Positions 64 to 15,522 of a stretch of 30,415 nucleotides of DNA are shown here, in pieces. The notes under the pieces are model-generated. The model searched no databases. It was not told the DNA's origin and worked only from the letters and a program-made list of their open reading frames with translations. The stretch is taken from NCBI GenBank assembly GCA_045639705.1, contig JAZUDP010000156.1:1-30415 (forward strand), in the 5' to 3' direction. Numbering within the stretch: the stretch's first letter is position 1; each line of letters opens with the position of its first letter. Source of the DNA: Acutalibacteraceae bacterium (GTDB taxonomy: Bacteria > Bacillota > Clostridia > Oscillospirales > Acutalibacteraceae). The position numbers were made by a program, and so were the translations under genes.

Positions 64-102
64 TCAGACAAATTTCTTATCATTTTTCATTTCACATCTT
101 GG

Positions 103-312: not shown

Positions 313-342
313 TCAAACTATTTTTCATTCCGATGCGTCTTA
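313..342 (+). promoter_or_regulatory. ECF-type promoter motif, copy 1: TCAAAC-N17-CGTCTTA
   Basis: TCAAAC is at 313-318, a 17-nt spacer starts with TATTT and ends with TG, and CGTCTTA is at 336-342. A T-rich tract lies upstream. It is near-identical to the copies at 685-714 (+) and 13063-13092 (-). AAC (-35) and CGT (-10) are the hallmarks of ECF sigma promoters. Confidence 0.55.
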
Positions 343-684
343 TGTGTGTAAAGAGAGTAAATCTATGACTGCTCCTTTATAAAATAAAGCTGTGGGGTGT
401 TAATTATAAAAAACGAAGCAGATTTAATGGACAGGCTCATTCATACAGCATTGCTTGCAGCAGAAGAAAAACTTGCAAGTACCTAAATAACAAAAGAGCA
501 AACTGCTGAACATAATCAAGAAAGTTTATACAAAGAAATCGGGACAGCTTCGGAAACGGATAAGTACAAATCGATAAAAACGGGAAAAATTACAGAAAAG
601 CAAACAAATAATATCTGCGCTGTTTGCGGAAACAGTAAATTTATCCGTCTGTTCGTAAAATAATTGAAATTTTTTCAAAAAATT

Positions 685-714
685 TCAAACTATTTTACGT
701 TGAGATGCGTCTTA
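685..714 (+). promoter_or_regulatory. ECF-type promoter motif, copy 2: TCAAAC-N17-CGTCTTA, 185 nt upstream of the 899 ATG
   Basis: TCAAAC is at 685-690, a 17-nt spacer TATTTTACGTTGAGATG follows, and CGTCTTA is at 708-714. It shares TTTCAAACTATTTT and GATGCGTCTTA with copy 1. Confidence 0.6.
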
Positions 715-898
715 CTGGCAAAGGTGAAAAATACTTTCAATTTGAACATATGAGGAGTGAATTTAATGAAAACATAATTCGCAATATCCGGGTTTATCGT
801 TAGTTAAATAAAAACAGAGGATTTTTTATGAAAAAGGCATCAGCATTTATTATTAACACTTGATTTAAAAGAACAAAGTAAAAAACGGAGGAAAAATT

Positions 899-2632
899 AT
901 GAAAGCTATATTTAAAAAAGTTTTATCGTCAACTCTCGCTGCAGCAATGCTGTTCGGAACAGCTCAGCTCGGCGCAAACTCAGACTTCACCATCAAGGCA
1001 AGTGCCGAAGAAAACACTTCTTACACCTTTGATGAAGAAAGCGGAACTCTCACAATGTTAAATGATGTTTTGGATTGGGACAACGAAGAAGCTCTCGAAC
1101 TGATTGCAAAAGCCAAAACAGTTTACATCGGAAAGGATATTAAAAATACTGATGTTTTCTTTACCAACAATGTAACCGGATTCGAAATTGACCCTGAAAA
1201 CGAAAACTTCTGCATTTACGACAAGGCTCTGTACACAAGCGATAAATCAAGAATGGTTGCATATCCCTGCGGCAGCGACGATGTTGATATCGTTCTTCCG
1301 AAGGAATGCACGGAAATTTCAGAATACTGCTTCAAGGACTGGAAGCATTATTGTGAATTCGGAGAGAGTATTACAGGCCTCGCATTACCCGTAAGAAACG
1401 ATTATTCGCTGTATATAACGGATAAAAATCAGGCTGAAGCGTTGTCAGATTATTTAGTGGCTTCTATCATTTATCCGTTTTCAAATATTTATCTTGACAA
1501 AACGCAGACGGAAATTGACGAATGGCAATACGATGATTTTTCAGCTGTAGATTTTTACAGATCAGCTGCCGGTTATATGCTTATTACTTATTTAAGCCAC
1601 AGATATGACAGCGAAAAAATGGATATCATTGAAACAGAAAGCAGTACGCTGTTTGAATACGGTATGCCTTTCACAAAGGAAGAATGTGAAACCTACAAAG
1701 AATTACTGCAGAATATGGACTGCTGGGATTATACCGAGCCCACAGCCGATGAGTTTTACGAGAGATACAGCACCGATAATTTTGAAGAAGAGTTTAAGCT
1801 CTGGACAGATTGTCTTAAGCGTGCACATGACTATGCAACAGAAACTTTTGAAAACTATGATGTATTCAAACCGATTTCGGAATATAACGGCGGCATCTGC
1901 GGCGACAATGCAGAATGGAAATATGACAGCACAACAAATACACTTAAAATAAGCGGTTCAGGCTCTGTAAAGGATAATTATTCAGGCTGGGATCTGTTCA
2001 GAGATTCCATAACCTCTGTTGAATTCGGCAACGGCATAACCTCAATCGGTGCAAATGCTTTTGAAGGCTGCAGCAGCATTTCCGATGTATACATAGCTGC
2101 TGATAATTTATCACTCGGAGAAAATGCATTCGGCACAGCCAAGCCGAACTTTATTGCAAAAGACGGTACAACTGCCTGCCGTGCAATTGAAAATGCAGGA
2201 TACAATGTTATCAGATACAGCCTTGACCGTACATTTGCAGAGAAAAAGAAGAGCGAAGAAAAACCCGTTCTTGCATTCCTTGACGCTGTTGCTTCCGAGA
2301 ACGGATTGAATTGCAGATATTTCACAAAGCTCATTCTTGATAATCCCGAAGCAGCTTATGTGTATTTTGAAAGTGTTAACCTGAATGACTTAACCGGTGA
2401 CGGTATAGTTATTGATACTGAAAGCAAAACAGACTGCTGTGAGCAGATATACTTCCGTGTTGAAGCACAGGATACCGACGGAGACGGTCAGGCTGACACC
2501 GTTAAGCTTTCCGATGTGGAAGCAGAAAAAACTTTCGTCGAAAAGGTTAAAGGATTCTTTGAAAAAGTTGTTGAATTTTTCTCGAATGTCTTTAATTCAA
2601 TTGGCGGATTTTTCAAAAATCTCTTTAATTAA
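899..2632 (+). CDS. Secreted BspA-type leucine-rich-repeat (LRR_5-like) protein with an amphipathic C-terminal tail
   Basis: RBS GGAGGAAAAATT precedes the ATG. The N-terminal signal peptide is MKAIFKKVLSSTLAAAMLFGTAQLGA...KASA. The motif CGDNAEWKYDSTTNTLKISGSGS...ITSVEFGNGITSIGANAFEGCSSISDVYI is typical of BspA/LRR_5 surface proteins. The last ~32 aa (FVEKVKGFFEKVVEFFSNVFNSIGGFFKNLFN) are a strongly amphipathic Phe-rich helix. Confidence 0.8.
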   Translation: MKAIFKKVLSSTLAAAMLFGTAQLGANSDFTIKASAEENTSYTFDEESGTLTMLNDVLDWDNEEALELIAKAKTVYIGKDIKNTDVFFTNNVTGFEIDPENENFCIYDKALYTSDKSRMVAYPCGSDDVDIVLPKECTEISEYCFKDWKHYCEFGESITGLALPVRNDYSLYITDKNQAEALSDYLVASIIYPFSNIYLDKTQTEIDEWQYDDFSAVDFYRSAAGYMLITYLSHRYDSEKMDIIETESSTLFEYGMPFTKEECETYKELLQNMDCWDYTEPTADEFYERYSTDNFEEEFKLWTDCLKRAHDYATETFENYDVFKPISEYNGGICGDNAEWKYDSTTNTLKISGSGSVKDNYSGWDLFRDSITSVEFGNGITSIGANAFEGCSSISDVYIAADNLSLGENAFGTAKPNFIAKDGTTACRAIENAGYNVIRYSLDRTFAEKKKSEEKPVLAFLDAVASENGLNCRYFTKLILDNPEAAYVYFESVNLNDLTGDGIVIDTESKTDCCEQIYFRVEAQDTDGDGQADTVKLSDVEAEKTFVEKVKGFFEKVVEFFSNVFNSIGGFFKNLFN

Positions 2633-2640
2633 AACCAAGC

Positions 2641-2675
2641 AAAAAATCTCCCGATTTTTCGGGAGATTTCTTTTT
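2641..2675. terminator. Bidirectional rho-independent terminator between convergent genes
   Basis: AAAAAATCTCCCG-attttt-CGGGAGATTTCTTTTT has A-run and T-run flanks on both sides. It overlaps the stop codon of the minus-strand gene. Confidence 0.8.
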
Positions 2676-5600
2676 ATCCGAATTTCATTATTCTGAATAC
2701 CGACAGAATATAATTTAATAATTTTATAAGCGCTTCTGTCAGAATATCAATCAGAGCTTTTGGTGTTTCGGGAGACTCTGCGGCAAATTCAATACTCTGA
2801 TCAACAAGATTAAGATACTCATTATATACCGAACTCGTTGTCAAAGCTTCTTCATCGCCGCTGTTCTGTTCAATTTCAGAAAGAAGAACGCCTGCCTGCT
2901 GCAGAATAAACACATCCTCGTTGTTTATTTCTCCGTCACGGTTACAGTCCGCCGCCTTCCAGACAGCCTCGCTCACATCTTCGCGGGTCAGCATACCGCT
3001 TGCAATACACGATACTGTCATCGCGTCCGTTCCGTCATACCAGCCGTCACCGTTTACATCACCGAAAATAACTGCGGTGTAAATAACTGTATTATCATTG
3101 TTTTCCGATCTGTCAAGATTGTTTTTCACAGTGATAACCGAGCCGGTAACTGCCCTCTTTGTATTGCAGTAAGCACTGATACTGCCGCCGCTGTTATTTA
3201 CATAGCCGTCTATGCTGCTGCCGGGCTTAAAGCCGAAAATTAAACCGCAGCCGTCAGACCGTACAGAATTGCAGAACGGATTTTTGAAGTCTTCAAAATT
3301 TTCAAAATTATAAAATGAATGTTCCCCTATCGACGGATAAGCTTTACTGTCGCTGTCAAAATAAAACGTGTACCATTTGTCATTTCCCGTATTACATGGG
3401 CAGTTACAGAAAGCATAATCGCCGATTTCCTTTATTTTATAGTTATAATCTGCGTCTTCATCATATTCAAATTCAACAGTTTTTAAATTCACACAGTTTT
3501 TGAACGCAGACCGTCCAATTTCCGTTACCGTATTCGGAATGATTACAGCGGTTAATCCCGTACAGCCGTAAAAAGCATAATCGCCGATTTTTTCAAGTCT
3601 GTCTGCTTTGGAAAAATCTATTTTGTTAATGCCCGTACACTCTCTGAATGCGTCGCTTCCGATTTCTTCAACACCTTCGGGAATAATAAACGTACCTCTT
3701 ACATTCGCCGAAACGCTTTTCAGAACCGTCTTTTTAGAGTCGCCGAACAGAATGTCGGTACTGCTTCCGCCAAAATCAAATCCTGCGACACATGAGGCAA
3801 ACGGATTTCTGTTGCCGTATTTTACATTTCCGCCGATATTGATTTTCTGAAGCCTTCTGCATCTGTAAAATGCAAGGTCGGAAACATAAGCGTTATCTAC
3901 TATTGTATATTCCGTGCCGTCCTTCATTGCGGGATACTGAATAATTGTATTTCCGTCTGCCGATGCAAGAACGCCGTCAATATCGCAATATTCGGAATTG
4001 CCGTTTTCAACATTAAAGCTTTTCAGTCCCGTACAGCCGTAAAATGCGAGATGACCGATTTCGTTTACACCCACAGGTATTGTAATTTCACCAAGCGATA
4101 TGCAGTCCGCAAAAGCATTGTCGCCGATTTCGGTTATATTGCCGTTCAGCGCAACCGATTTCAGATTCATACAGCCGCTAAATGTATTTTTATCAATAAT
4201 CCTTACGCTGTCGGGAACAGTAATGCTTTCGAGACTTGTACAGCCCGAAAAGGCTCCCGCGGCTATCTGCATGGTTCCGTCTCTGATTGTAAATGCACTT
4301 ACATCGGGTGCGACGGAAATAAGCACGGAATCAATATATAATGTTGTTTTTACCTCAGCCTCAACCTCAGTCTCTTCATCCGTTTTTGAATCATCTGTAA
4401 AGAGATTTTCTCCCACATATTTAAGGCTTTTCGGAAGATTTATTGAATTCTTTACAGAAGCCGAGCAGCCGCTGAACGCATTGCTGCCGAGGAAGCTGAG
4501 TCTGCTGTTTTCTCCGCAGCTAAAGCCTGTCAGAGCCGTACATTTTTCAAAAGCTCTGTCTGCAATGCCCCTGACATCATCATCAAGACTGTATTTTCCT
4601 CGGAGCTTTGTTTTTGAAGAAACGATATAGCCGCCTATAATCAATACGTTAGAAACCCATTCGCCCGCATTTTTATAATTACCCGAATTGAAGAACGCCT
4701 TTGCACCGATGCTTTTCAGACTTACTGTTCCGGGAATCTCAACAAAAACATTTATGCAGTTTACAAAAGCATTTTCGCATATGTGAGTTATACTGTCCGG
4801 CACAACATATTCCCCTGCAGAATTTCTGTTGCAGAACAGTATTCCCGTACCGTTTTCATTCAGAGACATATCGTTATCCGAAACTGACGCGGTGAAAAGA
4901 ACATTATTTTCAATCGGTATTGTATATACAACACCGAAGTCGTCTGTATTATCGGGAGCAATTACATACTGTAGATTGTCACAGCCGGAAACAGCCGTGT
5001 CTGCAAAATAAACTGAGCTTGAAAAGTTTATTGTCGTTACATTCTCACAGTTAAGGAAGCAGTTTTCTCCGACTTCTTCAACCGTGTCGGGGATTATAAC
5101 CGTTCCCTCTGCATCCGGAGTACATCCCAGAAGCAATTCCTTGCTCGAATCATAATAATACAGACCGTCTTCAACATATGCATCAACAGCCTTAGCCCCC
5201 CACGGCGAGCCCTGCCGATGCATAACATTATTGTACCAGTTATCCGAATAGGTGATATTATTAACAAAGCGGAATGCGTCTTTGCCTATATCGGTAACGC
5301 TGTTCGGGATTGTGATACTCTGTAAAAGCTGGCATAAGTAAAACGCATTCTCGCCTATACTGACAACACCGTCCGGGATGGAAATCGCTGCTAATTTTTT
5401 GCATGCCCAGAAGGACTGCGTTCCTATACTTGTGACGCTGTCCGGGATTGTGACACTTTTCAAATGGCTACAGCAAAAAAACATTCTATCGGGAATATAT
5501 GTAATACCTTGCGGAATTACAAAATCCGTAAGATTTTCACACCTTGCAATTGCACTGTCACCGATATATGCAACGCTGTCAGGGAAAGTAATACTTTCAA

Positions 5601-7725
5601 TGTTTGTACAGTATGAAAATGCACCGTTACCTATATATGTCACAGTCTCGGGTATAGTGATATCCGTCAGCCCCGAGCACGCACCAAATGCACATTCGCC
5701 TATATATGTAACGCTGTCGGGAATTGTAATATCGGTTAAGGATTTACATCCTTCAAACACACGGTCGCTGATGCTTACAATACCGTCGGGTATGTTTACG
5801 TTTTTTAAATTTGAGCAGTAGTAAAACGCCTGATTTTCAATATTCTCAATACTGTCGGGAATGTTTATATCTGTCAATGCACTGCAATCACAAAATGCAC
5901 GGCGGCCGATATTAACAACACCCTCGGAAATAACCACCTCCGTCAGACTTGAACAGCGTGAAAAAGCATCCTTACTGATATCCCTTACACCTTTGGGAAC
6001 AGTTACTGTTCCTGTTAAGCTCACACAGCTTTCAAAAGCACTCTGACCGATATATGTAACACTGTCAGGAATAGAGATTTTTATCAGACTTTTGCAGACA
6101 GAAAATGCGTTATCGCCTATATATTTCAGATTTTTCGGCATGACGATATCCGTCATAGCTGAGCAAAAATAAAAGGCATTCTCTTCAATATCTGTCACGC
6201 TATCCGGTAAAACTATACTTAGCAGGTCCTCACAGTAATAAAATGCATTTTCCCCTATGCTTTTAACTCCGTACGGAATTACTGTATTTTTAATTCCCGC
6301 AACCAGTTTATCCGAAGATGTTTCTATAATTCCGCTGCAGTTTTCACGGCTGTCATATTTCGCGTTGTTTTCATCGACCGTAATACTTGTTAAGAACGAG
6401 CAATTAGTGAATGCGCTGCCGTCTATATTCGCAACATTTTTCGGAATGTTTATGCTTGTCAGACCTGTACAATAAGCAAACGCCCGTTCGCCAATACTTA
6501 CCACACTGTCAGGAATAATAATGCTTGTCAGTTTTTCGCAGTGTTCAAGTGCCCGGAGCCCGATGTTTGTCACACCGTCGGGAATAACAATATCCGTTAA
6601 GTTCTCGCAAGAGTAAAATGTGAAAGGCTCTATGCTTGTAAGTCCGGCAGGCATTGTGATATCTGTTAAGCTTATGCAGTAATAAAATGCCTCCCAACCG
6701 ACAGAAGTCACGCTGTCCGGAATATCTGCGCTTATCAGAGCTGTACAGCAATAAAAGGCTTTGTCTCCGATAGAGGTAACGCCGTCGGGAATGTTTGCAC
6801 TTATCAATCCGGTACAATTACAGAAGGCTTGGGCTTCGATAGAGGTAACACCGTCGGGAATAACAATATGCTTTAATCCCGAACAGCCGTAAAATGCACG
6901 GTAGCTTATTCTTGTTACACCGTCGGGAATACTTATATCGGTCAGACCTGTACAGTTTTCAAATGCATTTGTACCGATATATGTTACATTGCGGGAAATC
7001 GTTACACCTGTTAAACGATTACAGCCAGAAAATGCAGAGTTTCCTATTTTTGTAACGCTGTCAGGGATTACGATGTCTGTAAGGCCTGTGCATTTAAAAA
7101 ACGCATTGTCCTCTATACTTTTAACGCCATTTGAAATTGTTATTTCTTTCAGACCGGTGCATTGGGAAAATGCGTAGCTTCCGATGCTTGTAACCAGGCC
7201 CGGAATCGTTATGTCTGTTAAACCGCTGCAGTTGGAAAATGCAGAGCCTCCGATGCTTGTAACCCCTTCGGGAATCGTTACACCTGTTAAACGTTTGCAA
7301 CCGGAAAAGGCAACGTTTTCTATTTTTGTAACACTGTCAGGAATCGTTATGTCTGTCAGGTTCGTGCAATTATAAAAAATATATCTTCCTATACTTGTAA
7401 CACCGTAATTAATTATAACTTTTTCTATTGACACATTATTATAAAACGGCGTTGAAGAAGAGCTGAAGCTTGTCATACTGCCTGTACCGCTGATTGTGAG
7501 AGTACCTGTGGCTTCATCCAACTCCCAGTAAACGTTATCTCCACACTGTCCGCTTGCGGCAAGTGCAGATGCCGAAAAACTTAACCGGACACTGTCAAAC
7601 CAATCTGCTATTTTTTTTAATGCACCCGAAAGATTTATATCTGTCAGTCCCTCCAGCGGTGCTGCACCGAAAAGCATGACAACGCACAGCAATATTGAAA
7701 TACTGTTTTTTATAATCTTTTTCAT
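2674..7725 (-). CDS. Giant (1683 aa) secreted BspA-type LRR protein with a near-C-terminal type-I dockerin and an extra amphipathic tail
   Basis: RBS GGAGGGAAAAAGCA precedes the ATG. The signal peptide is MKKIIKNSISILLCVVMLFGAAP. There are dozens of ~23-aa IPDSVTSIG..AF..C..L..I units (LRR_5-like). Dockerin duplicated Ca-loops are GDVNGDGWYDGTDAMTV and DCNRDGEINNEDVFILQQ. Confidence 0.9.
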   Translation of the reverse strand: MKKIIKNSISILLCVVMLFGAAPLEGLTDINLSGALKKIADWFDSVRLSFSASALAASGQCGDNVYWELDEATGTLTISGTGSMTSFSSSSTPFYNNVSIEKVIINYGVTSIGRYIFYNCTNLTDITIPDSVTKIENVAFSGCKRLTGVTIPEGVTSIGGSAFSNCSGLTDITIPGLVTSIGSYAFSQCTGLKEITISNGVKSIEDNAFFKCTGLTDIVIPDSVTKIGNSAFSGCNRLTGVTISRNVTYIGTNAFENCTGLTDISIPDGVTRISYRAFYGCSGLKHIVIPDGVTSIEAQAFCNCTGLISANIPDGVTSIGDKAFYCCTALISADIPDSVTSVGWEAFYYCISLTDITMPAGLTSIEPFTFYSCENLTDIVIPDGVTNIGLRALEHCEKLTSIIIPDSVVSIGERAFAYCTGLTSINIPKNVANIDGSAFTNCSFLTSITVDENNAKYDSRENCSGIIETSSDKLVAGIKNTVIPYGVKSIGENAFYYCEDLLSIVLPDSVTDIEENAFYFCSAMTDIVMPKNLKYIGDNAFSVCKSLIKISIPDSVTYIGQSAFESCVSLTGTVTVPKGVRDISKDAFSRCSSLTEVVISEGVVNIGRRAFCDCSALTDINIPDSIENIENQAFYYCSNLKNVNIPDGIVSISDRVFEGCKSLTDITIPDSVTYIGECAFGACSGLTDITIPETVTYIGNGAFSYCTNIESITFPDSVAYIGDSAIARCENLTDFVIPQGITYIPDRMFFCCSHLKSVTIPDSVTSIGTQSFWACKKLAAISIPDGVVSIGENAFYLCQLLQSITIPNSVTDIGKDAFRFVNNITYSDNWYNNVMHRQGSPWGAKAVDAYVEDGLYYYDSSKELLLGCTPDAEGTVIIPDTVEEVGENCFLNCENVTTINFSSSVYFADTAVSGCDNLQYVIAPDNTDDFGVVYTIPIENNVLFTASVSDNDMSLNENGTGILFCNRNSAGEYVVPDSITHICENAFVNCINVFVEIPGTVSLKSIGAKAFFNSGNYKNAGEWVSNVLIIGGYIVSSKTKLRGKYSLDDDVRGIADRAFEKCTALTGFSCGENSRLSFLGSNAFSGCSASVKNSINLPKSLKYVGENLFTDDSKTDEETEVEAEVKTTLYIDSVLISVAPDVSAFTIRDGTMQIAAGAFSGCTSLESITVPDSVRIIDKNTFSGCMNLKSVALNGNITEIGDNAFADCISLGEITIPVGVNEIGHLAFYGCTGLKSFNVENGNSEYCDIDGVLASADGNTIIQYPAMKDGTEYTIVDNAYVSDLAFYRCRRLQKINIGGNVKYGNRNPFASCVAGFDFGGSSTDILFGDSKKTVLKSVSANVRGTFIIPEGVEEIGSDAFRECTGINKIDFSKADRLEKIGDYAFYGCTGLTAVIIPNTVTEIGRSAFKNCVNLKTVEFEYDEDADYNYKIKEIGDYAFCNCPCNTGNDKWYTFYFDSDSKAYPSIGEHSFYNFENFEDFKNPFCNSVRSDGCGLIFGFKPGSSIDGYVNNSGGSISAYCNTKRAVTGSVITVKNNLDRSENNDNTVIYTAVIFGDVNGDGWYDGTDAMTVSCIASGMLTREDVSEAVWKAADCNRDGEINNEDVFILQQAGVLLSEIEQNSGDEEALTTSSVYNEYLNLVDQSIEFAAESPETPKALIDILTEALIKLLNYILSVFRIMKFG
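2881..3063 (-). other. Dockerin (type I-like) module within the giant LRR protein
   Basis: Two EF-hand-like 12-residue loops, each followed by a helix (DVNGDGWYDGTD..., DCNRDGEINNED...), match the canonical dockerin duplicated-segment pattern. The module sits about 68 aa before the C-terminus. Confidence 0.75.
5265..7419 (-). repeat. Densest in-frame array of ~69-bp LRR_5 coding repeats inside the giant gene
   Basis: The I/V-P-D/E-x-V-T-x-I-G-x-x-A-F-x-x-C-x-x-L unit recurs periodically. The periodicity also creates the spurious antisense ORFs with repeated VTLSGIV. Boundaries are approximate. Confidence 0.7.
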
Positions 7726-7746
7726 TGCTTTTTCCCTCCGTGAAAT

Positions 7747-9549
7747 TTAACGTCTTTTGAAACGGAACAGCTCAAAGAACTGTGCAAGAATCAATCTTAA
7801 TGTCTTGAATGTTTCTGCAATAGTCTGAGTTACATCGGGAACCGAAATTTTAATCCGAACGCTTATACTGTCTCCGTCCGCAGTTATTTCACACTCTTTC
7901 TGCACGCCGTTGACCTGTACCGTCAATTCTTCTGAATAATATCCCGATATTTTTATTTCCGCAAAGTATTCGTTTAATCCGCCGATTTCGTTGACGCTTT
8001 CTTTCAGGCTTTCGTCCTTAAAAAGGGAAATCTCAGCCGGAACAGTAAGCACCGAGCCGTCGTCAAATGTCAGTATTGTACTCTTAACCGCCCCGTTTTC
8101 ATCAGTCAGAATGTTCAGCCCGTTAACGCAGGCAGAGCCGATACCCTGTCCGGCAATTTTCAGCCGTCCTCTGCCGCCGTCCCAGCTTCCGTCAAATTCA
8201 ATCATTGTTTTAAATGTGCCGTCACTGTTTTTAAGACGCTTATAATCTGCAGCTACGGCTTCTTCTATCGTACTGTCTCTTTCAAAAGGCTCATAAAAAT
8301 CTTCATTCTCATACAAATAGCTGTCAAAGCCGTCTATTCTGCTGATTACCGTATCCTTTGTAAATCTGTAACCGTCAGCAGGAATTATATAAAAGCAGTT
8401 GTTAATACTGTTTTTCCTTACGATATGCTCTGTTGACGAAGTACCGAGACAGTATTCACTGTTGTTTTCAACTGAAATCTGAATATTCTGCACATCTTCG
8501 TTCCAGTTTTCATCCTTGACTGCCGATTTAACCGTCATTCTGTTAAGGGGCAAAAGTGAAAAATAGCAATAAACCGTATCGGGCGAGACTGAAATATTTT
8601 CACCTGTTACTTTTAATCTGCCGCTTAACACGGGGCGGTCAAAAAGTATAAGATTACAGCCGTTTTTCAGTGCGGCCTTACCGCTGAACGCAGTCGTTTT
8701 TCCGACTTTAACGGTTATTTCTTCAACCGAAGAAGAAAACGCCCTCACGTTTATACCGTAAATAAAGCCTACATGCCTTAAAAGCTGATTTCCCTTAAGC
8801 GTCAGATTAATGCCGTTAACACGGCTGACCTCAAGCGCCGCCGCATAAATAAGCGGCGCAGAATATGAAAGATAAAAATATCCTCCGTCTCCGAAATCTG
8901 TTCCGCTGCTGTTTTTGCATATCCACGCGCCGTTTTTCTTGCCGAGGCTTTTTCCGTTTTCACCCTTGTTGAAATTATTACGGTTATAATTATCGTCCCA
9001 GCCGACAATAGAAATCGCGTGATACTTATCACTGTTTCCTCCGCTGTAGGCAAAGCTGTGCGCTGCTTCGCTGTAATATCTTGAATCAGTCAGTCCGTCC
9101 TCATCAGGAACTGCAATTGCTGCAACAATCGCACCGTTTTCGCTGATTTTTTCTTTCAGATATCTGTCGCCTCTGCCCGAAAGAAATTCAACAGAGGTAA
9201 TCGCATATCCGTTTCCGATATTACAGCCGATGCTTTTGTAAAGCACATCTCCGAAGTTATGTATATCGGGATTTCCCGCCTCTTCTGCAAGACTTTCTTC
9301 GTTAAAATCAGCCTCACTGTCAGATGCATCGAAGTATTTTTTTGCATAGCTGCCCGCCGTTGAAAGTATTGAATAATAAAGACAGCTGTCCTCAATTTCC
9401 GCCTTCTCCACCGGCGGAGCATAATCCGCGTTGCTGAACTCTGAGGAATAAGAGCAATCCTGGGCAGGAACAGCCGCCGAACTGATAACGCATCCAAACA
9501 GCAAAGAAATAACACAGATTACCGAAATAACCGCTTTAAGCTTTTTCAT
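7747..9549 (-). CDS. Secreted papain-like (peptidase C1-like) protein with a ~350-aa C-terminal beta-rich extension and an amphipathic basic tail
   Basis: The signal peptide is MKKLKAVISVICVISLLFGCVISSAA. C1 motifs are present: YHAISIVGWDD (His), NGAWICKNSSGTDFGDGGYFYLSY (Asn block), and candidate Cys in EDSCLYYS. Start: the ATG at 9549 has better RBS spacing (GGAGAATGAAT) than the ATG at 9555. The 9555 ATG overlaps the upstream TGA as ATGA. Confidence 0.7.
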   Translation of the reverse strand: MKKLKAVISVICVISLLFGCVISSAAVPAQDCSYSSEFSNADYAPPVEKAEIEDSCLYYSILSTAGSYAKKYFDASDSEADFNEESLAEEAGNPDIHNFGDVLYKSIGCNIGNGYAITSVEFLSGRGDRYLKEKISENGAIVAAIAVPDEDGLTDSRYYSEAAHSFAYSGGNSDKYHAISIVGWDDNYNRNNFNKGENGKSLGKKNGAWICKNSSGTDFGDGGYFYLSYSAPLIYAAALEVSRVNGINLTLKGNQLLRHVGFIYGINVRAFSSSVEEITVKVGKTTAFSGKAALKNGCNLILFDRPVLSGRLKVTGENISVSPDTVYCYFSLLPLNRMTVKSAVKDENWNEDVQNIQISVENNSEYCLGTSSTEHIVRKNSINNCFYIIPADGYRFTKDTVISRIDGFDSYLYENEDFYEPFERDSTIEEAVAADYKRLKNSDGTFKTMIEFDGSWDGGRGRLKIAGQGIGSACVNGLNILTDENGAVKSTILTFDDGSVLTVPAEISLFKDESLKESVNEIGGLNEYFAEIKISGYYSEELTVQVNGVQKECEITADGDSISVRIKISVPDVTQTIAETFKTLRLILAQFFELFRFKRR

Positions 9550-9551
9550 AT

Positions 9552-11378
9552 TCATTCTCCAATTCTTTCAATAAAATCTGAAAGTGCCGTAATCATTTTT
9601 TCAATATACTCAAATATCAAGTCGTTGTGGAAATCGTATTCAAGTATTTCTTTTATGACAGGTATCTCTTTTCCTTTTTCTTCAAGTCCGTCAATTTTAT
9701 CAGTATCCGTCAGCCGGGCCTGAATATTGTCGATTACATCGTTCTGCCATGCAACCCATCTGTCAAATGCAGAAATATTTTCATCTGCCCTGCCGTCCTC
9801 GGAGGAATACAGATGAACAACAAAAACCAGCTTTTTGCTCTCGGGATTTTCAGCAACACCGATACCTATTTTTTCAAAATCTCCGCTGATTTTTTCATCC
9901 TTAAGTATTGAGGCTGCAGCAGTTTCGTACGACGAATAATCAACCCTTCTTATTTCATCTCTTGAGCCGGTCGAATAGCCGTTGTGTTCAAACAGAGCCG
10001 TATAGTCCGTTCCGTCAGGTCTTATTGCCGTATCTCTTTCCGTCCATGCGATTTCTTCAGCTCTTACGTTTGCCTGCTCAGTCAGGATATCGTCAAGCAC
10101 AAGAGCTTTCTTGTTTTCGGAAGCTCTTTTTTCATTTATTTCTGCAAGTGAATCGTTGATATATGCAATATATTTACTTTGGTTTTCTTTTGCCGCCGGC
10201 AGCAGTTCCTCATAGCTTGCTTTAAAATTTTTTCTGTTCAGAACAGGTCTGCCCGAATATACATCGCCGTTTCTGTTTGCATAACGCTGAATAGTGTATT
10301 CCACTCCGTATTTAAGCTTTCCTTTTTCAAAATAAGTATCGGCAAGCTTATTCTCTGCAACCGTGTATGCCTCTGTCGGCTTTTCCGTAATCGCTTCGGT
10401 AACAGACTCAATATATGTCGGTTCGGTATATTCCTCTGCAACGGCAGTTGTCGGTTCTTCTGTCTGACGGTTCTTTAATGCCCGGGTTCCTGCGATACCT
10501 CCGCCTGCAATAACGCCTGCGATAACAACGCATGCGATGATTTTTGCGGCAATGCCCGTGCCTGCTGCGGCCGTACCTGCGGCAGCAAGGCCCGAAGCTG
10601 CATAAGGAGCAACGGAAGTTGAAGCGGCGGAGGTTTTGAGTACCCAGCCGATAAGCGTTGCAGGTGTAACACCAAGAAGCTTACCGTGCTTTGCCTCGTA
10701 AGCGGAAACCGCTTTGGTAATATCCTTTTTAGCCTGAACAAGTCGGCTCTTGATTGTGTTTTCACTTACACCGACAGACTCTGAAATCTCCCTTGTGGTC
10801 ATGTTGTTGTAATAGTAGAGGATGACAGCGGCTTTCTTTTCCTCGCTGAGATTCTCAATCATGTCCATAACGGTTCTGCACAGTTCTTCCTTTTCAAGGT
10901 CGGATTCGGGCAGAAAGCTTTCATAATCCTCAGAGGTCGCCTCGTCAATATATGCCTGCTTTTTTGATTCTCCGATGCTCATGCCGTCATCGCTGTTATG
11001 GTCGGAATAATCGTCACTGTAATCTCCGAATTCCTTTGCCCACTCGTCGTCAAGATTTGAATAATCTTCTTCCTGAGTTTTTTCATAGAATCGGGGATTA
11101 TTCTTTCTTATTACGGATTTAGCCTGATTGGCAACAATCATGTTGAACCAGCTCATAAAGGTTGTCGGATCTTTAAGCGTGCCGATTTTATCCATAACCT
11201 TTATGTAACAATCCTGCATGACATCGTCAGCATCGGATTCATTATTGTTAAGTATTTTTAAAGCGGTGAATTTTGCCGTGCGGTAAGTCATGTTGTAAAT
11301 CTGTTCAAACGCGCTGCCGTCACCGTTCTGATACTTTACAACCAGTTTGCTAAGCTCGTTATAATCAATTTCAGCCAT
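9552..11378 (-). CDS. ECF-like sigma-70 family factor fused to a transmembrane segment and a C-terminal CAP/SCP (YkwD-like) domain
   Basis: Region 2 reads DDVMQDCYIKVMDKIGTLKDPTTFMSWFNMIVANQAKSVIRK. Region 4 HTH reads LSEEKKAAVILYYYNNMTTREISESVGVSENTIKSRLVQAKKDI. An ~80-aa acidic linker lies between them. An Ala/Gly-rich hydrophobic segment is IAAKIIACVVIAGVIAGGGIAG. The C-terminal part reads INEKRASENKKALVLDDILTEQANVRAEEIAW...RPDG...FEKIGIGVAE...VFVVHLY, which resembles CAP domains. Confidence 0.75.
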   Translation of the reverse strand: MAEIDYNELSKLVVKYQNGDGSAFEQIYNMTYRTAKFTALKILNNNESDADDVMQDCYIKVMDKIGTLKDPTTFMSWFNMIVANQAKSVIRKNNPRFYEKTQEEDYSNLDDEWAKEFGDYSDDYSDHNSDDGMSIGESKKQAYIDEATSEDYESFLPESDLEKEELCRTVMDMIENLSEEKKAAVILYYYNNMTTREISESVGVSENTIKSRLVQAKKDITKAVSAYEAKHGKLLGVTPATLIGWVLKTSAASTSVAPYAASGLAAAGTAAAGTGIAAKIIACVVIAGVIAGGGIAGTRALKNRQTEEPTTAVAEEYTEPTYIESVTEAITEKPTEAYTVAENKLADTYFEKGKLKYGVEYTIQRYANRNGDVYSGRPVLNRKNFKASYEELLPAAKENQSKYIAYINDSLAEINEKRASENKKALVLDDILTEQANVRAEEIAWTERDTAIRPDGTDYTALFEHNGYSTGSRDEIRRVDYSSYETAAASILKDEKISGDFEKIGIGVAENPESKKLVFVVHLYSSEDGRADENISAFDRWVAWQNDVIDNIQARLTDTDKIDGLEEKGKEIPVIKEILEYDFHNDLIFEYIEKMITALSDFIERIGE

Positions 11379-11390
11379 CCGCTCACATCC

Positions 11391-11519
11391 TTATTTCAGG
11401 CAGTTTTTCGACTTCAAATATTCCGTAAGAATATCAATAAGCATTTTCAGTTTCTCTTCCGGAGAAATCTCCATTTTTGAAGCATATTCATTCAATACCT
11501 GTCGTATTAAACTATTCAT
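11391..11519 (-). CDS. 42-aa small ORF (MNSLIRQVLNEYASKMEISPEEKLKMLIDILTEYLKSKNCLK), first gene of the sigma operon; absent from the ORF track
   Basis: Hand translation of the minus strand. RBS GAGAGGTG lies 5 nt before the ATG. The stop is 12 nt upstream of the sigma ATG. It is predicted all-helical. It shares the heptapeptide LIDILTE with the C-terminal tail of the giant LRR protein. Confidence 0.5.
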   Translation of the reverse strand: MNSLIRQVLNEYASKMEISPEEKLKMLIDILTEYLKSKNCLK

Positions 11520-11556
11520 TTTAACACCTCTCGTTCAGCCGAAAGATGCTGTTTTA

Positions 11557-11585
11557 ATAATAGCACCCTTCAACAGAAATGTAAA
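11557..11585 (-). promoter_or_regulatory. SigA-type promoter for the sORF/sigma operon (TTTACA-N17-TATTAT)
   Basis: Read on the minus strand, -35 is at 11585-11580 and -10 is at 11562-11557, about 38 nt upstream of the sORF ATG. Confidence 0.45.
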
Positions 11586-11872
11586 ATATTATATCGGCGA
11601 TTTAAAAAATTAACACAGGATATTTATAAATGATTTTTCACTGGCGGTTTTATATCCGTCGTCGGTCTGCTTGAATGCCCCGAAGTCTGTCGGATTCTGC
11701 ATTAAAAGTTCACCTCTTTGCTCCGAGAATGCTCATGTTGAATATTAACCGGCAGAACAATGTGAATTGCATTTTTGCTTGATACGCTGTTCCAAACCGA
11801 TGTTGCAGAAATGCCGCAGTTACAGAAAATCATTTCGCAAGCATTCTTTGATTTAATTTTTTGTTAACCTTA

Positions 11873-13006
11873 TTATGCCGTTTCAAACCATTCAATCAGG
11901 CCGTTATCAAAGCAAAGATTAACATTTTCTCCAAGGCTGTTTACCGTTGTGTCCGGCAAAGGAGAGTTATCCGCAATTTTACATAAGTTGTAACCGATTG
12001 TCTTTGCAAGGAAATGAGATATTCCGGGATGAGAACTGTCAGGAAGAACTACGCGATTACTGAAGACTGACCAACGGCAGTGTTCCTTCACATTTGTTTT
12101 TTCACACAGACGGTTCCAGGTTACATTCTGATTTGCGATGTAATTTATAAGCGGGTCTGTCTTTGCGGATATTATCCAGATAGGAAGATTTGATACTTTT
12201 TCAAGTTCTTTATTGGTAGGTATCTTTGTAGCACAAAGTGCAACACCTGAGGTGAAACGGTTCGGATGATTTATCATAAGCTTCCACACAACCCCGCCGC
12301 CGGCAGAGCCGCCCATAATCAGTATTTTATTCTCGTCGATATTTTCTTTGTTGTCGTTTATATACTCCTGAATAACACTGTAAACAGATTCTGACTGAGC
12401 GGACGAAAGCTTAAATTCAGAAAGTTTCGGCATAAGCAGATGAGCGCCGCCGGCTTCAAACTTTTCCTGAATTTCCGTACAGCACCAGTATGCGAGTCCG
12501 CTCTTTACAAAGGTTTTGTCGGTCCAGCCATGAAATCTGCCGTGTACATATATAACAAGCGGATACTTTGCAGTATCGTTTTCGTCAGCAACAGGTGAAT
12601 AATATGCATATTTCATTCCGCAGCCGGACTTTTTAATTGTAAACTGTTCAAGAAGTTTGTTGTAGCCGTTATTTATGCTGAATGTTTCTTTTTTTATTAT
12701 GACGGGCTGCTCCGGTTCATCAGGCTGCACCGGCTCATCAGGCTGCTCCGGTTCATCAGGCTGCACCGGCTCATCAGGCTGCTCCGGCTCGTCAGGCTGC
12801 TCCGGCTCGTCAGGCTGCTCCGGCTCGTCAGGCTGTACCGGTTCGTCAGGCTGTTTTTCAGGGTCTTCTGTCGTATTCTCTGTTTCTTCTTCAGTGAGAG
12901 TTGTTTCTGTCGGGTTTTCTGCATCCTCTGCATATGCCGGAAATGTTGTGTTCGCCATTGTAAAAACACAAATGATTGCAAGCAGAATTGATAAGATTTT
13001 TTTCAT
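11873..13006 (-). CDS. Secreted alpha/beta-hydrolase esterase (CE1/PHB-depolymerase-like) with an N-terminal acidic Pro-rich repeat linker
   Basis: The start was trimmed to the ATG at 13006 (RBS AGGAG, signal peptide MKKILSILLAIICVFTMANTTFPAYA). The ORF-track N-terminal extension runs through the promoter and terminators. Motifs seen: nucleophile elbow IMGGSAGGG, YPLVIYVHGRFHGW, SAKTDPL, and a late His in SSHPGISHF. Confidence 0.8.
   Translation of the reverse strand: MKKILSILLAIICVFTMANTTFPAYAEDAENPTETTLTEEETENTTEDPEKQPDEPVQPDEPEQPDEPEQPDEPEQPDEPVQPDEPEQPDEPVQPDEPEQPVIIKKETFSINNGYNKLLEQFTIKKSGCGMKYAYYSPVADENDTAKYPLVIYVHGRFHGWTDKTFVKSGLAYWCCTEIQEKFEAGGAHLLMPKLSEFKLSSAQSESVYSVIQEYINDNKENIDENKILIMGGSAGGGVVWKLMINHPNRFTSGVALCATKIPTNKELEKVSNLPIWIISAKTDPLINYIANQNVTWNRLCEKTNVKEHCRWSVFSNRVVLPDSSHPGISHFLAKTIGYNLCKIADNSPLPDTTVNSLGENVNLCFDNGLIEWFETA
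12704..12853 (-). repeat. 18-bp in-frame tandem repeat encoding (QPDEP[E/V]) x8
   Basis: Directly visible CCGG[C/T]TC[A/G]TCAGGCTG[C/T][A/T]C periodicity. It translates to QPDEPVQPDEPEQPDEPE... within the esterase. Confidence 0.9.
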
Positions 13007-13062
13007 AATAATTACTCCTGTTTTTGTTTGTTTTTTAAAGCGTCTCTTCGTGCTTTCACCTA

Positions 13063-13092
13063 TAAGATGCAGAAGGAACTGAAATAGTTTGA
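13063..13092 (-). promoter_or_regulatory. ECF-type promoter motif, copy 3: TCAAAC-N17-CATCTTA, 57 nt upstream of the esterase ATG
   Basis: The minus strand reads ATATCAAACTATTTCAGTTCCTTCTGCATCTTATAGG. TCAAACTATTT is identical to copies 1 and 2, the spacing is the same 17 nt, and TGC[A]TCTTA differs by one base. A T/A-rich tract lies upstream. Confidence 0.55.
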
Positions 13093-13110
13093 TATTTTTA
13101 AAAAAATTAT

Positions 13111-13145
13111 AAAAAAAATTAGAGCAGAGGTTGCAGCCTCTGCTC
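13111..13145 (-). terminator. Rho-independent terminator (GAGCAGAGG-ctgcaa-CCTCTGCTC + T8) on the minus strand
   Basis: A 9-bp GC-rich stem is followed by TAATTTTTTTT on the minus strand, immediately upstream of the esterase promoter. Confidence 0.7.
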
Positions 13146-13156
13146 ACAGTCTGTAG

Positions 13157-13195
13157 AAAAGCCCTAAACCTCAAGCGAGGTTTAGGGCTTTGGTG
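13157..13195. terminator. Second strong hairpin (GCCCTAAACCTC-aagc-GAGGTTTAGGGC), T-rich on both sides
   Basis: A perfect 12-bp stem. It is followed by TTTTCTAC on the minus strand and TTTGGTGTT on the plus strand. Confidence 0.65.
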
Positions 13196-14467: not shown

Positions 14468-14476
14468 TCAGACATA

Positions 14477-15507: not shown

Positions 15508-15522
15508 GTTATGCACATAATA

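Follow-up and report, generated by a model that had tools for sequence, protein, structure and literature searches.

The window analysed here is a 30,415-nucleotide stretch of contig JAZUDP010000156.1 (GCA_045639705.1) from an Acutalibacteraceae bacterium. Four genes lie in series on its minus strand [Table 1], encoding a small open reading frame (sORF) product, an ECF sigma factor fused through a transmembrane (TM) helix to a CAP domain, a C1-like peptidase and a giant leucine-rich repeat (LRR_5) protein with a dockerin. The ORF list and a signal scan recovered the four same-strand genes, their spacing and the upstream promoter-like site proposed in an initial annotation of the sequence. The genes are separated by 12 nt, then by a 4-nt ATGA overlap and finally by 21 nt; the overlap would be replaced by a 2-nt gap if the peptidase started two codons later, where its database copy P0086 begins. 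Also as annotated, a bidirectional terminator hairpin closes the operon (read at 2672-2641 on the minus strand, 14 pairs, and at 2644-2669 on the plus strand, 11 pairs), and the operon interior holds no convincing minus-strand terminator, only two 5-pair stems, both within the LRR gene. The promoter-like site upstream is not significant on its own because the region shows no enrichment of sites of this kind (31 versus 27.1 expected); it is retained in L001, a locus 84% identical to the window. Strong TTGACT..TATAAT promoters stand 5′ of the sigma gene in L003-L005, L092, L093, L095 and L096. In the window and in most loci of the CAP type the operon is served by a sigma-70-type promoter; the LRR giant is accordingly an expression partner of the sensor and not one of its outputs. 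Sought as a known RNA family in the leaders, no Rfam match at gathering score turned up in the window or in six loci, and the GGATTGGCT element of related loci is missing from the window. A mobile-element origin was considered and set aside, as no full-length match was found in plasmid or phage collections.

Table 1 Features of the locus, with residue numbers for protein segments and window coordinates for nucleotides.
Feature	Residues	Nucleotides	Strand	Basis or remark
Sigma-70-like promoter TTTACA-17-TGcTATTAT		11557-11585	minus	intergenic; preserved in L001
sORF, 42 aa		11391-11519	minus	ORF list
Sigma-TM-CAP fusion gene, 608 aa		9552-11378	minus	ORF list
Sigma2 (Sigma70_r2)	28-94	11097-11297	minus	PF04542, 31.2 bits (cut-off 24)
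Acidic insert in sigma2-sigma4 linker	95-158		minus	64 aa, 21 Asp/Glu
Sigma4 (Sigma70_r4_2)	170-219	10722-10871	minus	PF08281, 50.7 bits (cut-off 25.7)
TM helix	about 277-298	10485-10550	minus	hydropathy scan, AF2 model
Pro/Thr/Glu-rich stalk	between TM helix and CAP		minus	sequence
CAP domain	411-521	9816-10148	minus	PF00188, 33.3 bits (cut-off 21.1)
C-terminal helical region	537-607		minus	sigma fusion protein
C1-like peptidase gene, 602 aa		7747-9555	minus	ORF list
LRR_5/dockerin giant gene, 1683 aa		2674-7725	minus	ORF list
Dockerin_1 of LRR giant	1555-1610	2896-3063	minus	PF00404, 29.2 bits (cut-off 22.9)
Terminator hairpin common to convergent units		2641-2675	both	signal scan; bidirectional
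Promoter motif 1, TTCAAACTATTT-N-GCGTCTTATG		312-346	plus	two-block PWM 33.9
Degenerate sORF-family copy, 29 aa (ADLMDRLIHTALLAAEEKL)		397-486	plus	similar to helix 1 of L007/L008 sORFs
Promoter motif 2, TTTTCAAAAAA-TTTCAAACTATTT-N-GCGTCTTAC		684-718	plus	PWM 33.7
Gene for 577-aa exported protein, one LRR_5 segment		899-2632	plus	behind promoter 2
Secreted alpha/beta-hydrolase, 377 aa		11873-13006	minus	nearest gene downstream of promoter 3
Promoter motif 3, ATCAAACTATTT-N-GCATCTTATAGG		13059-13093	minus	PWM 29.6; directly after two terminators (13122-13191)

Profile searches run on each product detected the ECF sigma, CAP, C1 peptidase, LRR_5 and dockerin domains above their cut-offs. The sigma fusion scores 93.6 bits on TIGR02937 (cut-off 42.9), and the presence of sigma2 and sigma4 above family thresholds, without sigma3, assigns it to the ECF group (group 4). 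In its AF2 model an ECF sigma fold is followed by one TM helix and by a CAP fold predicted with confidence; model confidence is low at residues 95-158 and 251-327 and high in the CAP core (residues 391-520, pLDDT 86-96). In Foldseek comparisons, the N-terminal part of the model matches SigE, AlgU and SigW, and the CAP part matches BB0689 (4d53; TM-score 0.82 on target, rmsd 2.1 Å), SAV1118 (4h0a) and the B. anthracis SCP (4ifa). The Pfam and NCBIfam domains and the model thus bear out the earlier proposal that sigma factor, tether and sensor are one polypeptide whose C-terminal domain adopts a CAP fold. Comparison with homologues restricts the acidic insert to the clade of the window. Invariant in 21 sigma homologues are Gly292-Gly293 within the TM helix and a KLLGVAPxxxxxW motif after sigma4. 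The spacer between sigma4 and the TM helix, an Ala/Gly/Ser-rich linker, spans about 45-50 residues, some 25 of them conserved and the remainder predicted to be disordered. No anti-sigma family, FecR or other, was found in the fusion by Pfam or NCBIfam at E≤0.1, nor was a zinc-finger HxxxCxxC motif found before the TM helix, residues 220-276 containing no Cys and a single His.

The CAP domain is presumed to be extracytoplasmic on the basis of a simple hydropathy scan and of relatives of the family taken to be secreted. The scan finds a single hydrophobic segment above threshold (residues 267-301), preceded by a 266-residue N-terminal part devoid of a signal peptide. Among 1.84 billion representatives, the complete ectodomain turned up in 9 clusters, all of them sigma fusions; its weaker relatives are proteins of 190-360 residues in which the match reaches the C-terminus, and which we take to be secreted stand-alone CAP proteins. 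The basic residues of the RALKNR sequence that follows the TM helix on its presumed outer side run against the positive-inside rule and mildly disfavour an outside CAP domain. A topology with two TM segments, which would leave the CAP domain in the cytoplasm, was considered unlikely: its first candidate segment, LLGVTPATLIGWVL, holds an Arg, and is trailed by a hydrophilic helical insert in six homologues.

The peptidase combines a signal peptide, a partial Peptidase_C1 match (PF00112, residues 119-230, 30.1 bits, cut-off 20.7, covering profile positions 113-203 only), beta-sandwich domains and a C-terminal helix ending in RFKRR. Its predicted model has a papain fold, and Cys58, His179 and Asn215 are invariant in seven locus-derived and 15 database homologues. 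The catalytic Cys being residue 58 with the signal peptide counted, the enzyme has no propeptide. The initial description of the peptidase as lacking the oxyanion Gln holds for the clade of the window, in all ten clusters of which the residue six positions before the Cys is Ala (VExA-x5-C), whereas the distant members P0097-P0101 and L002-L005 keep the Gln (NQ-x5-C); the substitution may weaken catalysis. The closest solved relative is Cwp84, both by sequence (E 2e-7) and by predicted fold (E 6e-10), the alignment covering the C1A domain and the beta-sandwich that follows it. Neither the lectin-like domain PF18560 nor CWB2 was detected in the peptidase. An LLFGC lipobox-like motif was dismissed as a lipoprotein anchor, as it varies among homologues.

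The giant is a BspA-type protein with 990.8 bits of LRR_5 (PF13306) over 13 stretches, a signal-like hydrophobic segment at residues 3-30 and an amphipathic C-terminal helix. LRR_5 genes are abundant in these genomes, with several per locus. Its dockerin shows both loops of the DxNxDGxxxxxD type (DVNGDGWYDGTD and DCNRDGEINNED). Beyond the window, a dockerin is recorded only for the closely related L001, which makes the cellulosome link initially suggested a peripheral one. The C-terminal helix and basic residues of the peptidase and of the LRR giant probably serve in membrane retention; the tails in the window are amphipathic (KD19 0.8-1.6) and not clearly transmembrane. They match no NCBIfam C-terminal sorting model, and were rejected as a known sorting signal.

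The 42-residue sORF product belongs to a conserved family of two-helix small proteins (37 clusters, 42-78 residues) in which no Pfam domain was found. A member is always encoded immediately 5′ of the sigma gene and, in several loci, comes straight after the ECF-type motif described below. The assertion that no separate anti-sigma gene is present stands only insofar as no known anti-sigma domain was detected; the sORF product is a conserved candidate regulator, and the only candidate for a separate one. The likeness of its segment KMLIDILTEYLK to the LRR tail KALIDILTEALIK is confined to the window and L001, being absent from L003 and the other loci, and was treated as a coincidence between amphipathic helices.

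Surveying gene neighborhoods from both search directions (sigma homologues L001-L006 and L010; peptidase homologues L090-L096), we found the order sigma-TM-CAP, C1-like peptidase, LRR_5 giant in 13 of 13 independent loci at 35-84% identity. L091 and L094 end at a contig edge, L091 short of the LRR position, and the giant is found at this position in all related loci that extend far enough. The LRR gene always follows the peptidase gene directly, and in loci with recorded gene calls the peptidase start overlaps the sigma stop or lies within 22 nt of it. The three genes are thus genuinely linked, and the case in which sigma fusions would never adjoin C1-like or LRR genes, named beforehand as refuting the proposal, does not apply. 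The peptidase was found with CAP-type sigmas only: sigma-TM relatives of the non-CAP type have other ectodomains and no peptidase, and adjoin or are fused to LRR_5 genes.

A strongly conserved ECF-type promoter, TTTCAAACTATTT-N10-GCGTCTTATAGG (in degenerate form TTTCAAACTATTT-N10-(G/C)(C/T)GTCTTATAGG), accompanies the sigma family and is present in three copies in the window, all outside 2674-11585 [Table 1]. For comparison with their PWM scores, the best of 50 shuffles reached 19.3. The matrix gave 23 matches in 536 kb of sigma-TM loci and one in 1748 kb of unrelated loci, a comparison that is partly circular because 11 of the 23 served to train it; the three window matches and several of the locus matches lie outside the training set. 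In L008 and L012 the motif stands before the sORF-sigma genes as well as before the LRR gene, and in no locus is a predicted target promoter more than a few kb away from the sigma gene. ECF cognate promoters are of the AAC (-35)/CGT (-10) type, usually with autoregulation. Their co-localization suggests that the sigma fusion, rather than a paralogue, may read the motif.

The three motifs flank the operon. Behind the first, the degenerate sORF copy stops at an in-frame TAA, the frame remaining open to about position 663. The 577-residue LRR_5 protein is the probable target of the second; its amphipathic C-terminal tail ends in GFFKNLFN, a type of tail also found on two L001 proteins of 295 and 298 residues, both behind an identical motif. 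The hydrolase behind the third carries a signal peptide and a QPDEPE-repeat linker. The signal scan reported no minus-strand terminator from 11873 to 11520, between hydrolase and sORF, and likely read-through from the hydrolase unit into the sORF-sigma-peptidase-LRR genes would give positive feedback. The initial view of a self-contained module in 2674-11585 was accordingly too narrow: with the probable cognate promoters and their targets lying outside, at about 312, 684 and 13093, the module extends from about 300 to 13100.

Parts of this arrangement have counterparts elsewhere. IutY has a FecR-type anti-sigma region, its receptor is a TonB-dependent outer-membrane transducer, and the proteases Prc and RseP are housekeeping enzymes. 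This ECF243 sigma/anti-sigma hybrid of Pseudomonas putida has been characterized and is released by Prc and RseP (PMC8999054, PMC5411451). Like the window protein, it unites an N-terminal ECF sigma, one TM segment and a C-terminal domain in one polypeptide, that domain being extracytoplasmic in IutY and presumably so in the window protein. IutY belongs to a cell-surface signaling system that includes a surface receptor, and its sigma is activated when sequential proteolysis releases it. The window, in contrast, comes from a Gram-positive-type Clostridia host, and no FecR domain was detected. Its ectodomain combines CAP with a helical region, a dedicated C1 peptidase from the operon is the candidate for site-1 cleavage, and an LRR_5 giant is the surface partner. 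The membrane-spanning sigmas of groups ECF48, ECF52 and ECF53 have also been described (PMC8999054, PMC5411451); these actinobacterial proteins (e.g., SCO4117) likewise fuse an ECF sigma to TM helices, a Pro-rich outer stalk and an extracytoplasmic domain, stalk and CAP domain being presumed to lie outside in the window protein, and their activation by proteolysis has been proposed (PMC5826349, PMC8999054). In them a ZAS-like zinc-finger anti-sigma domain precedes the membrane and the ectodomain binds carbohydrate, whereas the window sigma has no Cys/His zinc motif between sigma4 and the TM helix, and phylum, partners and promoter motif differ.

SigI/RsgI systems likewise operate in fibrolytic Clostridia, where an extracytoplasmic sensor controls an alternative sigma for surface or cellulosomal proteins, as would be the case here with an LRR protein bearing a dockerin. 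In those systems sigma and anti-sigma are separate proteins, and RsgI bears carbohydrate-binding sensors in addition to its own anti-sigma domain at the N-terminus. The window sigma, by comparison, is a generic ECF (TIGR02937) for which SigI models are not among the best NCBIfam matches, and no RsgI-like gene or domain was found within the operon by Pfam or NCBIfam. ToxR, CadC and TcpP resemble the fusion as single chains in which one TM helix connects a DNA-targeting domain in the cytoplasm to a sensor outside the membrane (presumably outside in the fusion), with targets encoded nearby; they are winged-helix activators acting while tethered, and not sigma factors. Cwp84-type proteases comprise a propeptide, a C1A domain, a lectin-like domain and cell-wall-binding repeats, and Cwp84 matures SlpA. 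The window peptidase resembles this Clostridioides difficile cell-surface protease (4ci7, 4d59) in its papain fold followed by a beta-sandwich (lectin-like) domain; it differs in having no propeptide, CWB2 wall-binding repeats or Pfam lectin-like match, in its extra beta-sandwich domains, C-terminal helix and Ala in place of the oxyanion Gln, and in its genetic tie to a sigma factor. A literature search on sigma factors with a CAP domain, BspA/LRR or Cwp84/dockerin found no description of such a system. The earlier remark that no characterized system of this composition was known thus stands, and the composition alone is new; the fusion of a sigma factor to a membrane-spanning sensor is already exemplified by IutY and ECF48/52/53.

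Taken together, these observations are best accounted for, with a probability that we put at roughly one half, by a conserved, Clostridia-specific surface-to-gene module built around a one-polypeptide ECF sigma that is released by proteolysis from a tethered, inactive form. The sigma2-sigma4 part would reside in the cytoplasm, with a single TM helix and a flexible stalk bearing the CAP domain and its helical extension outside the cell, and one operon would yield this fusion together with two exported partners, the propeptide-less Cwp84-like peptidase and the BspA-type LRR giant. While tethered, the sigma would be inactive. Some event at the surface complex would allow the partner peptidase to cleave the ectodomain or its stalk at site 1, after which an intramembrane protease would cleave the Gly-rich TM helix at site 2, and the sigma domain, once free, would switch on the local promoters, driving the hydrolase, the 577-residue LRR_5 protein and the degenerate sORF copy. 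The sORF product could act as a small cytoplasmic feedback regulator, possibly as a minimal anti-sigma. Our best inference is that the sigma is freed proteolytically and that the C1-like enzyme cuts first. Two indirect hints point toward site-1/site-2 release: a peptidase is encoded in the same operon, and an invariant Gly-Gly in a TM helix suits a substrate of an intramembrane protease. Counting against this account are the sigma-70-type promoter of the operon, which makes the LRR giant a partner in expression, the loss of the oxyanion Gln in the clade of the window, the basic residues after the TM helix and the low model confidence at residues 95-158 and 251-327.

The lack of an anti-sigma domain between sigma4 and the membrane, which might hold a tethered sigma off the polymerase, counts against an inactive tethered form, and suggests an alternative that we consider unlikely: the sigma stays anchored throughout, engages core RNA polymerase in that state, much as ToxR or CadC work from the membrane, and activates nearby promoters only, which co-translational insertion of the products of the locus would keep at the membrane. 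The ectodomain would then tune activity by allostery or stability, and the peptidase and LRR protein would be cargo or partners. The disordered linker of ~45 residues between sigma4 and the TM helix and the confinement of predicted targets to the vicinity of the sigma gene in every locus are in keeping with such a scheme; the invariant Gly-Gly and the strict co-inheritance of a dedicated extracytoplasmic peptidase with the CAP ectodomain argue for release instead, as does IutY, the only characterized membrane-spanning sigma hybrid, which is released by proteolysis (PMC8999054).

The peptidase might also have another main task, namely the processing or shedding of the LRR giant and of further surface proteins with such tails, with the CAP ectodomain docking or inhibiting the enzyme, the sigma part merely securing co-expression and any signaling passing through another cue. 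Its kinship to Cwp84 in sequence and structure and the unvarying position of its gene directly upstream of the LRR gene favor this role, as does the missing propeptide, because of which the enzyme would need an external restraint. Yet the peptidase tracks the CAP ectodomain and not the LRR gene: non-CAP sigma-TM loci encode LRR_5 proteins in the absence of the peptidase, so that these proteins can as a rule do without the enzyme, and we judge this role improbable as the principal one. That an ordinary ECF sigma with an unusual tail came to lie beside unrelated surface genes by chance could appeal to the upstream promoter-like site, which is not statistically distinctive, and to the sheer number of LRR_5 genes, but is effectively refuted by the gene order kept in 13 of 13 loci across both search directions and by the specific promoter motif common to the loci; the exclusiveness of the ectodomain to sigma fusions makes it still harder to entertain.

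A wider and more tentative generalization, of which we remain doubtful, is that gut and rumen Clostridia possess an undescribed class of single-chain membrane-spanning sigmas with interchangeable ectodomains (CAP, LRR_5, SH3, Ig-like) and one promoter code, each controlling nearby genes for surface proteins that a C-terminal helix anchors. The CAP subclass might use the propeptide-less cysteine peptidase as its committed site-1 protease, the 42-59-residue protein might be a new minimal anti-sigma or feedback factor and a further layer of feedback might come, in many of the loci, from an RNA hairpin that is complementary to the leader of the sigma mRNA.

Mechanistic knowledge of such signaling sigmas comes almost entirely from Proteobacteria, Bacilli and Actinobacteria, and the gene cluster looks like an uncharacterized route from the cell surface to gene expression in rumen and gut Clostridia. 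The module would equip these abundant and poorly studied fibrolytic bacteria with a compact, self-encoded surface-signaling device consisting of a sensor-sigma in one chain, a dedicated protease, an LRR giant, a small regulator and a sharply defined promoter. Since promoter motif and protein parts are now specified, it is directly testable. It also offers a handle on the regulation of BspA-type LRR proteins, which are very numerous in gut Clostridia and whose function is largely unknown, and the short promoter and single-chain sensor-sigma are possible orthogonal parts for engineering anaerobes. The relatives of the locus come from metagenome-assembled genomes of Clostridia, Acutalibacteraceae and Oscillospiraceae from the ruminant and human gut.

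Domain searches of the sigma fusion returned Sigma70_r2, Sigma70_r4_2, TIGR02937 (the ECF superfamily model) and CAP, all over their curated cut-offs. These matches, the presence of one hydrophobic segment and the layout of an AF2 model agree in placing a sigma factor, a membrane tether and a CAP domain in a single polypeptide, as the initial annotation had proposed. The model, which was built on 21 homologues, reached a mean pLDDT of 67.7, with values of 86-96 in the CAP core and low confidence in the linkers. Foldseek matched its N-terminal part to the ECF sigma factors SigE/RseA, AlgU and SigW, and its CAP part to bacterial CAP proteins, the best of which was BB0689 (TM-score 0.82, rmsd 2.1 A). 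The topology derives from a simple hydropathy scan, in which residues 267-301 formed the only hydrophobic segment. No anti-sigma domain was detected in the fusion, and a zinc motif was absent from the ~50 residues between sigma4 and the membrane. Conserved across the 21 homologues were the sigma domain, KLLGVAPxxxxxW, a Gly-Gly in the TM helix, the CAP core and a C-terminal DIPVIxxILxYDFxxD. The sigma2-sigma4 linker of the window protein is occupied by an acidic insert of 64 residues (21 Asp/Glu, 5 Lys/Arg) that is predicted to be disordered; this insert is restricted to the close clade of the window, the linker being short in more distant homologues.

Features of the window, of the sigma fusion protein and of related loci (L-numbers)
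Feature	Position	Strand	Remark
sORF	11391-11519	minus	42 aa
Sigma fusion gene	9552-11378	minus	608 aa
C1-like peptidase gene	7747-9555	minus	602 aa
LRR/dockerin gene	2674-7725	minus	1683 aa
Promoter-like site	11585-11557	minus	TTTACA-17-TATTAT, extended TG
Bidirectional terminator	2641-2675		
ECF-type promoter 1	312-346	plus	degenerate sORF-like ORF behind
ECF-type promoter 2	684-718	plus	before 577-aa LRR_5 protein gene, 899-2632
ECF-type promoter 3	13093-13059	minus	immediately past two terminators; before secreted alpha/beta-hydrolase gene
GH10 xylanase	16304-17446		
GDSL esterase	21049-22110		
GH106-like rhamnosidase	23856-26906		
Sigma2	aa 6-93		AF2 model
Acidic disordered insert	aa 95-158 (window 10905-11096)		AF2 model
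Sigma4	aa 160-231		AF2 model
Short conserved helix	aa 239-250		AF2 model
Single TM helix	aa 277-290		AF2 model
Disordered Pro/Thr/Glu-rich stalk	between TM helix and beta unit		AF2 model
Small beta unit and CAP domain	aa 346-525		AF2 model
Four C-terminal helices	aa 537-607		AF2 model
C-terminal tails	window 7747-7830, 2674-2760, 2550-2632; L001 8918-10736; L002-L005, L008, L010, L012		
RNA element	L004 6081-6409; L005 899-1228; L092 5617-5941; L093 1-336; L095 5885-6204; L096 1536-1958		

The C1-like peptidase possesses a signal peptide, is devoid of a propeptide and retains intact catalytic residues, Cys58, His179 and Asn215 being invariant. Its earlier description as 'Gln-less' was borne out, the oxyanion Gln being replaced by Ala in 10/10 clusters of the clade of the window; the oxyanion NQ is kept in more distant members of the family. 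By sequence and predicted fold, its closest solved relative is Cwp84, a surface protease of C. difficile, whose propeptide and wall-binding repeats it nonetheless lacks. Downstream of the papain domain are beta-sandwich domains, and then a C-terminal helix with an RFKRR end. The LRR/dockerin protein likewise displayed the LRR and dockerin parts first ascribed to it: it combines a signal peptide with 13 LRR_5 stretches and a genuine type I dockerin, and it terminates in an amphipathic helix. Ruminococcus cellulosomes are known to include, as an oddity, LRR proteins and peptidases that bear dockerins (PMC3573020). At the C-terminus of the peptidase, of the LRR giant and of the 577-aa protein, and of many proteins encoded nearby in related loci, is an amphipathic-to-hydrophobic helix, often followed by basic residues, with endings such as IPDITxTI...F(R/K)xxRR, ...GFFxxIIAFF... 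and ...FFKNLFN. These tails matched none of the known C-terminal sorting models and may represent a tag of the regulon, for membrane anchoring or assembly, that has yet to be described.

The association of these genes is conserved. In a neighbourhood survey started from sigma homologues (35-84% identity; loci L001, L002, L003, L004, L005/L006 and L010), the C1-like gene was found directly downstream of the sigma gene, followed by the LRR_5 giant, in every sufficiently long locus. The reverse survey, in which the peptidase family served as query in an independent metagenome collection, placed a sigma-TM-CAP gene directly upstream in 7/7 loci (L090-L096) whose peptidase relatives were full-length or N-terminal, including L094, where just the 3' part of that gene is present, and L091, a short, frameshifted contig; the LRR_5 giant lay downstream in all of them except L091. 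Generic C1 peptidase loci, 72 of 73, were without any other component, L161 yielding a lone LRR_5 match. With both directions combined, 13 of 13 independent loci had sigma-TM-CAP paired with the C1-like gene; the stop of the former and the start of the latter overlapped or were separated by at most 22 nt. Adjacency by chance can in effect be dismissed. Among 1.84 billion representatives, no more than nine clusters (50% identity) contain the full ectodomain, CAP together with the helical extension, and all nine are sigma fusions of 583-625 aa; weaker matches were stand-alone CAP proteins whose coverage was limited to the CAP core. Non-CAP sigma-TM relatives bear other ectodomains (LRR_5, SH3, Ig-like or unknown) and adjoin or are fused to LRR_5 genes, with the peptidase absent. 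Since these relatives keep LRR_5 and not the peptidase, the core pairing is that of sigma-TM with LRR_5 surface proteins, and the peptidase goes only with the CAP ectodomain. L002 (1058-4785) harbors two tandem sigma-TM paralogues, of which only one has CAP and both have an sORF copy ahead of them, and in L007 (10001-12106) LRR_5 repeats are fused straight onto sigma-TM; these two loci suggest that one promoter code is common to several sensors and that LRR_5 itself is usable as a sensor domain.

That promoter motif, TTTTCAAAAAA-TTTCAAACTATTT-N10-(G/C)(C/T)GTCTTATAGGTG, is sharply conserved upstream of sORFs, non-CAP sigma genes, LRR_5 genes and genes for small exported proteins. It is specific to sigma-TM loci: a two-block matrix built from 11 motif instances, which makes part of the matrix evidence circular, gave 23 matches in 536 kb of such loci vs 1 in 1748 kb of unrelated loci. 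The window yielded three matches (scores of 33.9, 33.7 and 29.6, the top of 50 shuffles being 19.3), none of which was in the training set, and GTCTTATAGG is part of the motif in each. All three fall outside positions 2674-11585, and the module can thus no longer be taken as bounded by these initial limits. The 577-aa protein behind promoter 2 ends in ...GFFKNLFN, the same tail as that of two L001 proteins behind the same motif. The true start of the hydrolase gene (11873-13006, minus strand) is the ATG at 13006; a 433-aa call from a TTG start was rejected because it overruns the promoter and the terminators. A long QPDEPE/QPDEPV repeat linker separates the signal peptide of the hydrolase from its catalytic domain. 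Transcripts of the hydrolase gene would meet no terminator before the sORF, which makes read-through into sORF-sigma-peptidase-LRR plausible and, with it, positive feedback.

The four minus-strand ORFs are present exactly where the initial annotation had put them, with the same gaps of 12 nt, a 4-nt ATGA overlap and 21 nt; its alternative of a 2-nt gap corresponds to a database copy of the peptidase that begins two codons later. A minus-strand scan gave no convincing internal terminator, and the bidirectional terminator at the end of the operon was recovered. Promoter-like sites were not enriched in the region (31 found vs 27.1 expected from shuffles), and the sigma-70-like promoter call therefore rests on intergenic position and conservation in L001, a close relative. 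The sigma operon of most CAP-type loci has a strong TTGACT..TATAAT promoter of its own; sensor, peptidase and LRR giant thus appear to be produced constitutively, with the ECF-type promoters driving the flanking genes. A 26-codon ORF of the window, MQNPTDFGAFKQTDDGYKTASEKSFI (~11622-11702, minus strand), is found in the interval that separates the hydrolase gene from the sigma-70-like promoter, and its ribosome-binding site is good; the DNA-level conservation of this ORF in L001 is uninformative because the two genomes are too close.

How the module might operate is best approached through IutY, the sigma/anti-sigma hybrid of Pseudomonas putida that is set free by Prc and RseP (PMC8999054, PMC5411451). 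In the proposed scheme, the CAP domain would be located outside the cell, the sigma would be inactive while membrane-tethered, and it would read the ECF-type motif; by analogy with IutY, initial cleavage would fall to the peptidase, and an intramembrane protease would cut next. We give proteolytic release of this kind a probability of about one half. The sigma might also act while still tethered, on a strictly local regulon, which we deem unlikely. The peptidase, followed as it is by an LRR_5 giant, could have the maturation of the LRR protein as its real job, with CAP as its dock or inhibitor; this, too, strikes us as improbable.

With IutY (ECF243) and the actinobacterial ECF48/52/53, the fusion shares an ECF sigma joined to a membrane-spanning sensor, but their defining features, a FecR region and a zinc-finger anti-sigma domain, are missing here, and the fusion is not a SigI/RsgI pair. 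A literature search retrieved no description of a CAP ectodomain on a sigma factor, nor of any sigma factor linked to LRR_5 or Cwp84-like genes, in agreement with the earlier remark that no characterised system of such composition was known. The module is therefore a variant of a known principle: the fusion of sigma, membrane segment and sensor has precedents, and its novelty is its composition.

The claim that no separate anti-sigma gene is visible held in that no known anti-sigma domain was detected, but the sORF, conserved upstream of the sigma gene, is a candidate regulator and the only one for a separate protein. Members of its family (consensus LDxLIRxxLxxAAExTxMxxExKVxLLLxxLTxFL) measure 42-59 aa when read directly in loci and up to 78 aa in the database, the longer forms reading as the 59-aa form plus an N-terminal extension. 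A member closely precedes the sigma gene in the window, L001-L005 (twice in L002), L008, L012, L092, L095 and L096, and L007 has a member behind a copy of the ECF-type motif. A profile search collected 37 clusters, all of small stand-alone proteins with no Pfam domains and no names. The product is hydrophilic, with no segment over the hydropathy threshold, and inspection of the alignment indicates that it probably forms two helices. A second family member behind promoter 1 (397-663, plus strand) is broken at codon 30 by an in-frame TAA, beyond which the frame is open for ~59 more codons, and would be either a decaying copy or a case of read-through. In two CAP-type loci, L004 (5709-5870) and L095 (~5536-5690), the ECF-type promoter is separated from the sORF by another conserved small ORF, of ~53 aa (MYKLTFSNNDMAINYIDSLF...), that the window lacks.

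Six related loci carry, between the sORF and the sigma gene, a ~30-bp stem whose inner loop contains AGCCAATCC (hairpin loop AGCCAAUCC). Downstream of it come a strong TTGACT..TATAAT promoter and a leader that starts with the exact loop complement GGATTGGCT (leader GGAUUGGCU) and also holds a second hairpin (CTTGTCATAT...ATATGACAGG) and a U-run. The L095 loop reads AGCCGATCC, and its pairing with the leader would be preserved by G-U wobble, a hint that the element works through pairing of RNA with RNA and not as a protein operator. The element had no Rfam match and is absent from the window.

The G+C content of the module (0.41-0.42) is slightly below that of the neighbouring CAZyme genes (0.45-0.50), and no link to mobile elements was found. 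Relatives are MAGs from ruminant and human gut (Clostridia, Acutalibacteraceae, Oscillospiraceae). Positions 14000-30415 of the window, at a G+C of 0.45-0.50, encode enzymes that act on plant fibre, which fits a fibrolytic Clostridia host from the gut or rumen.
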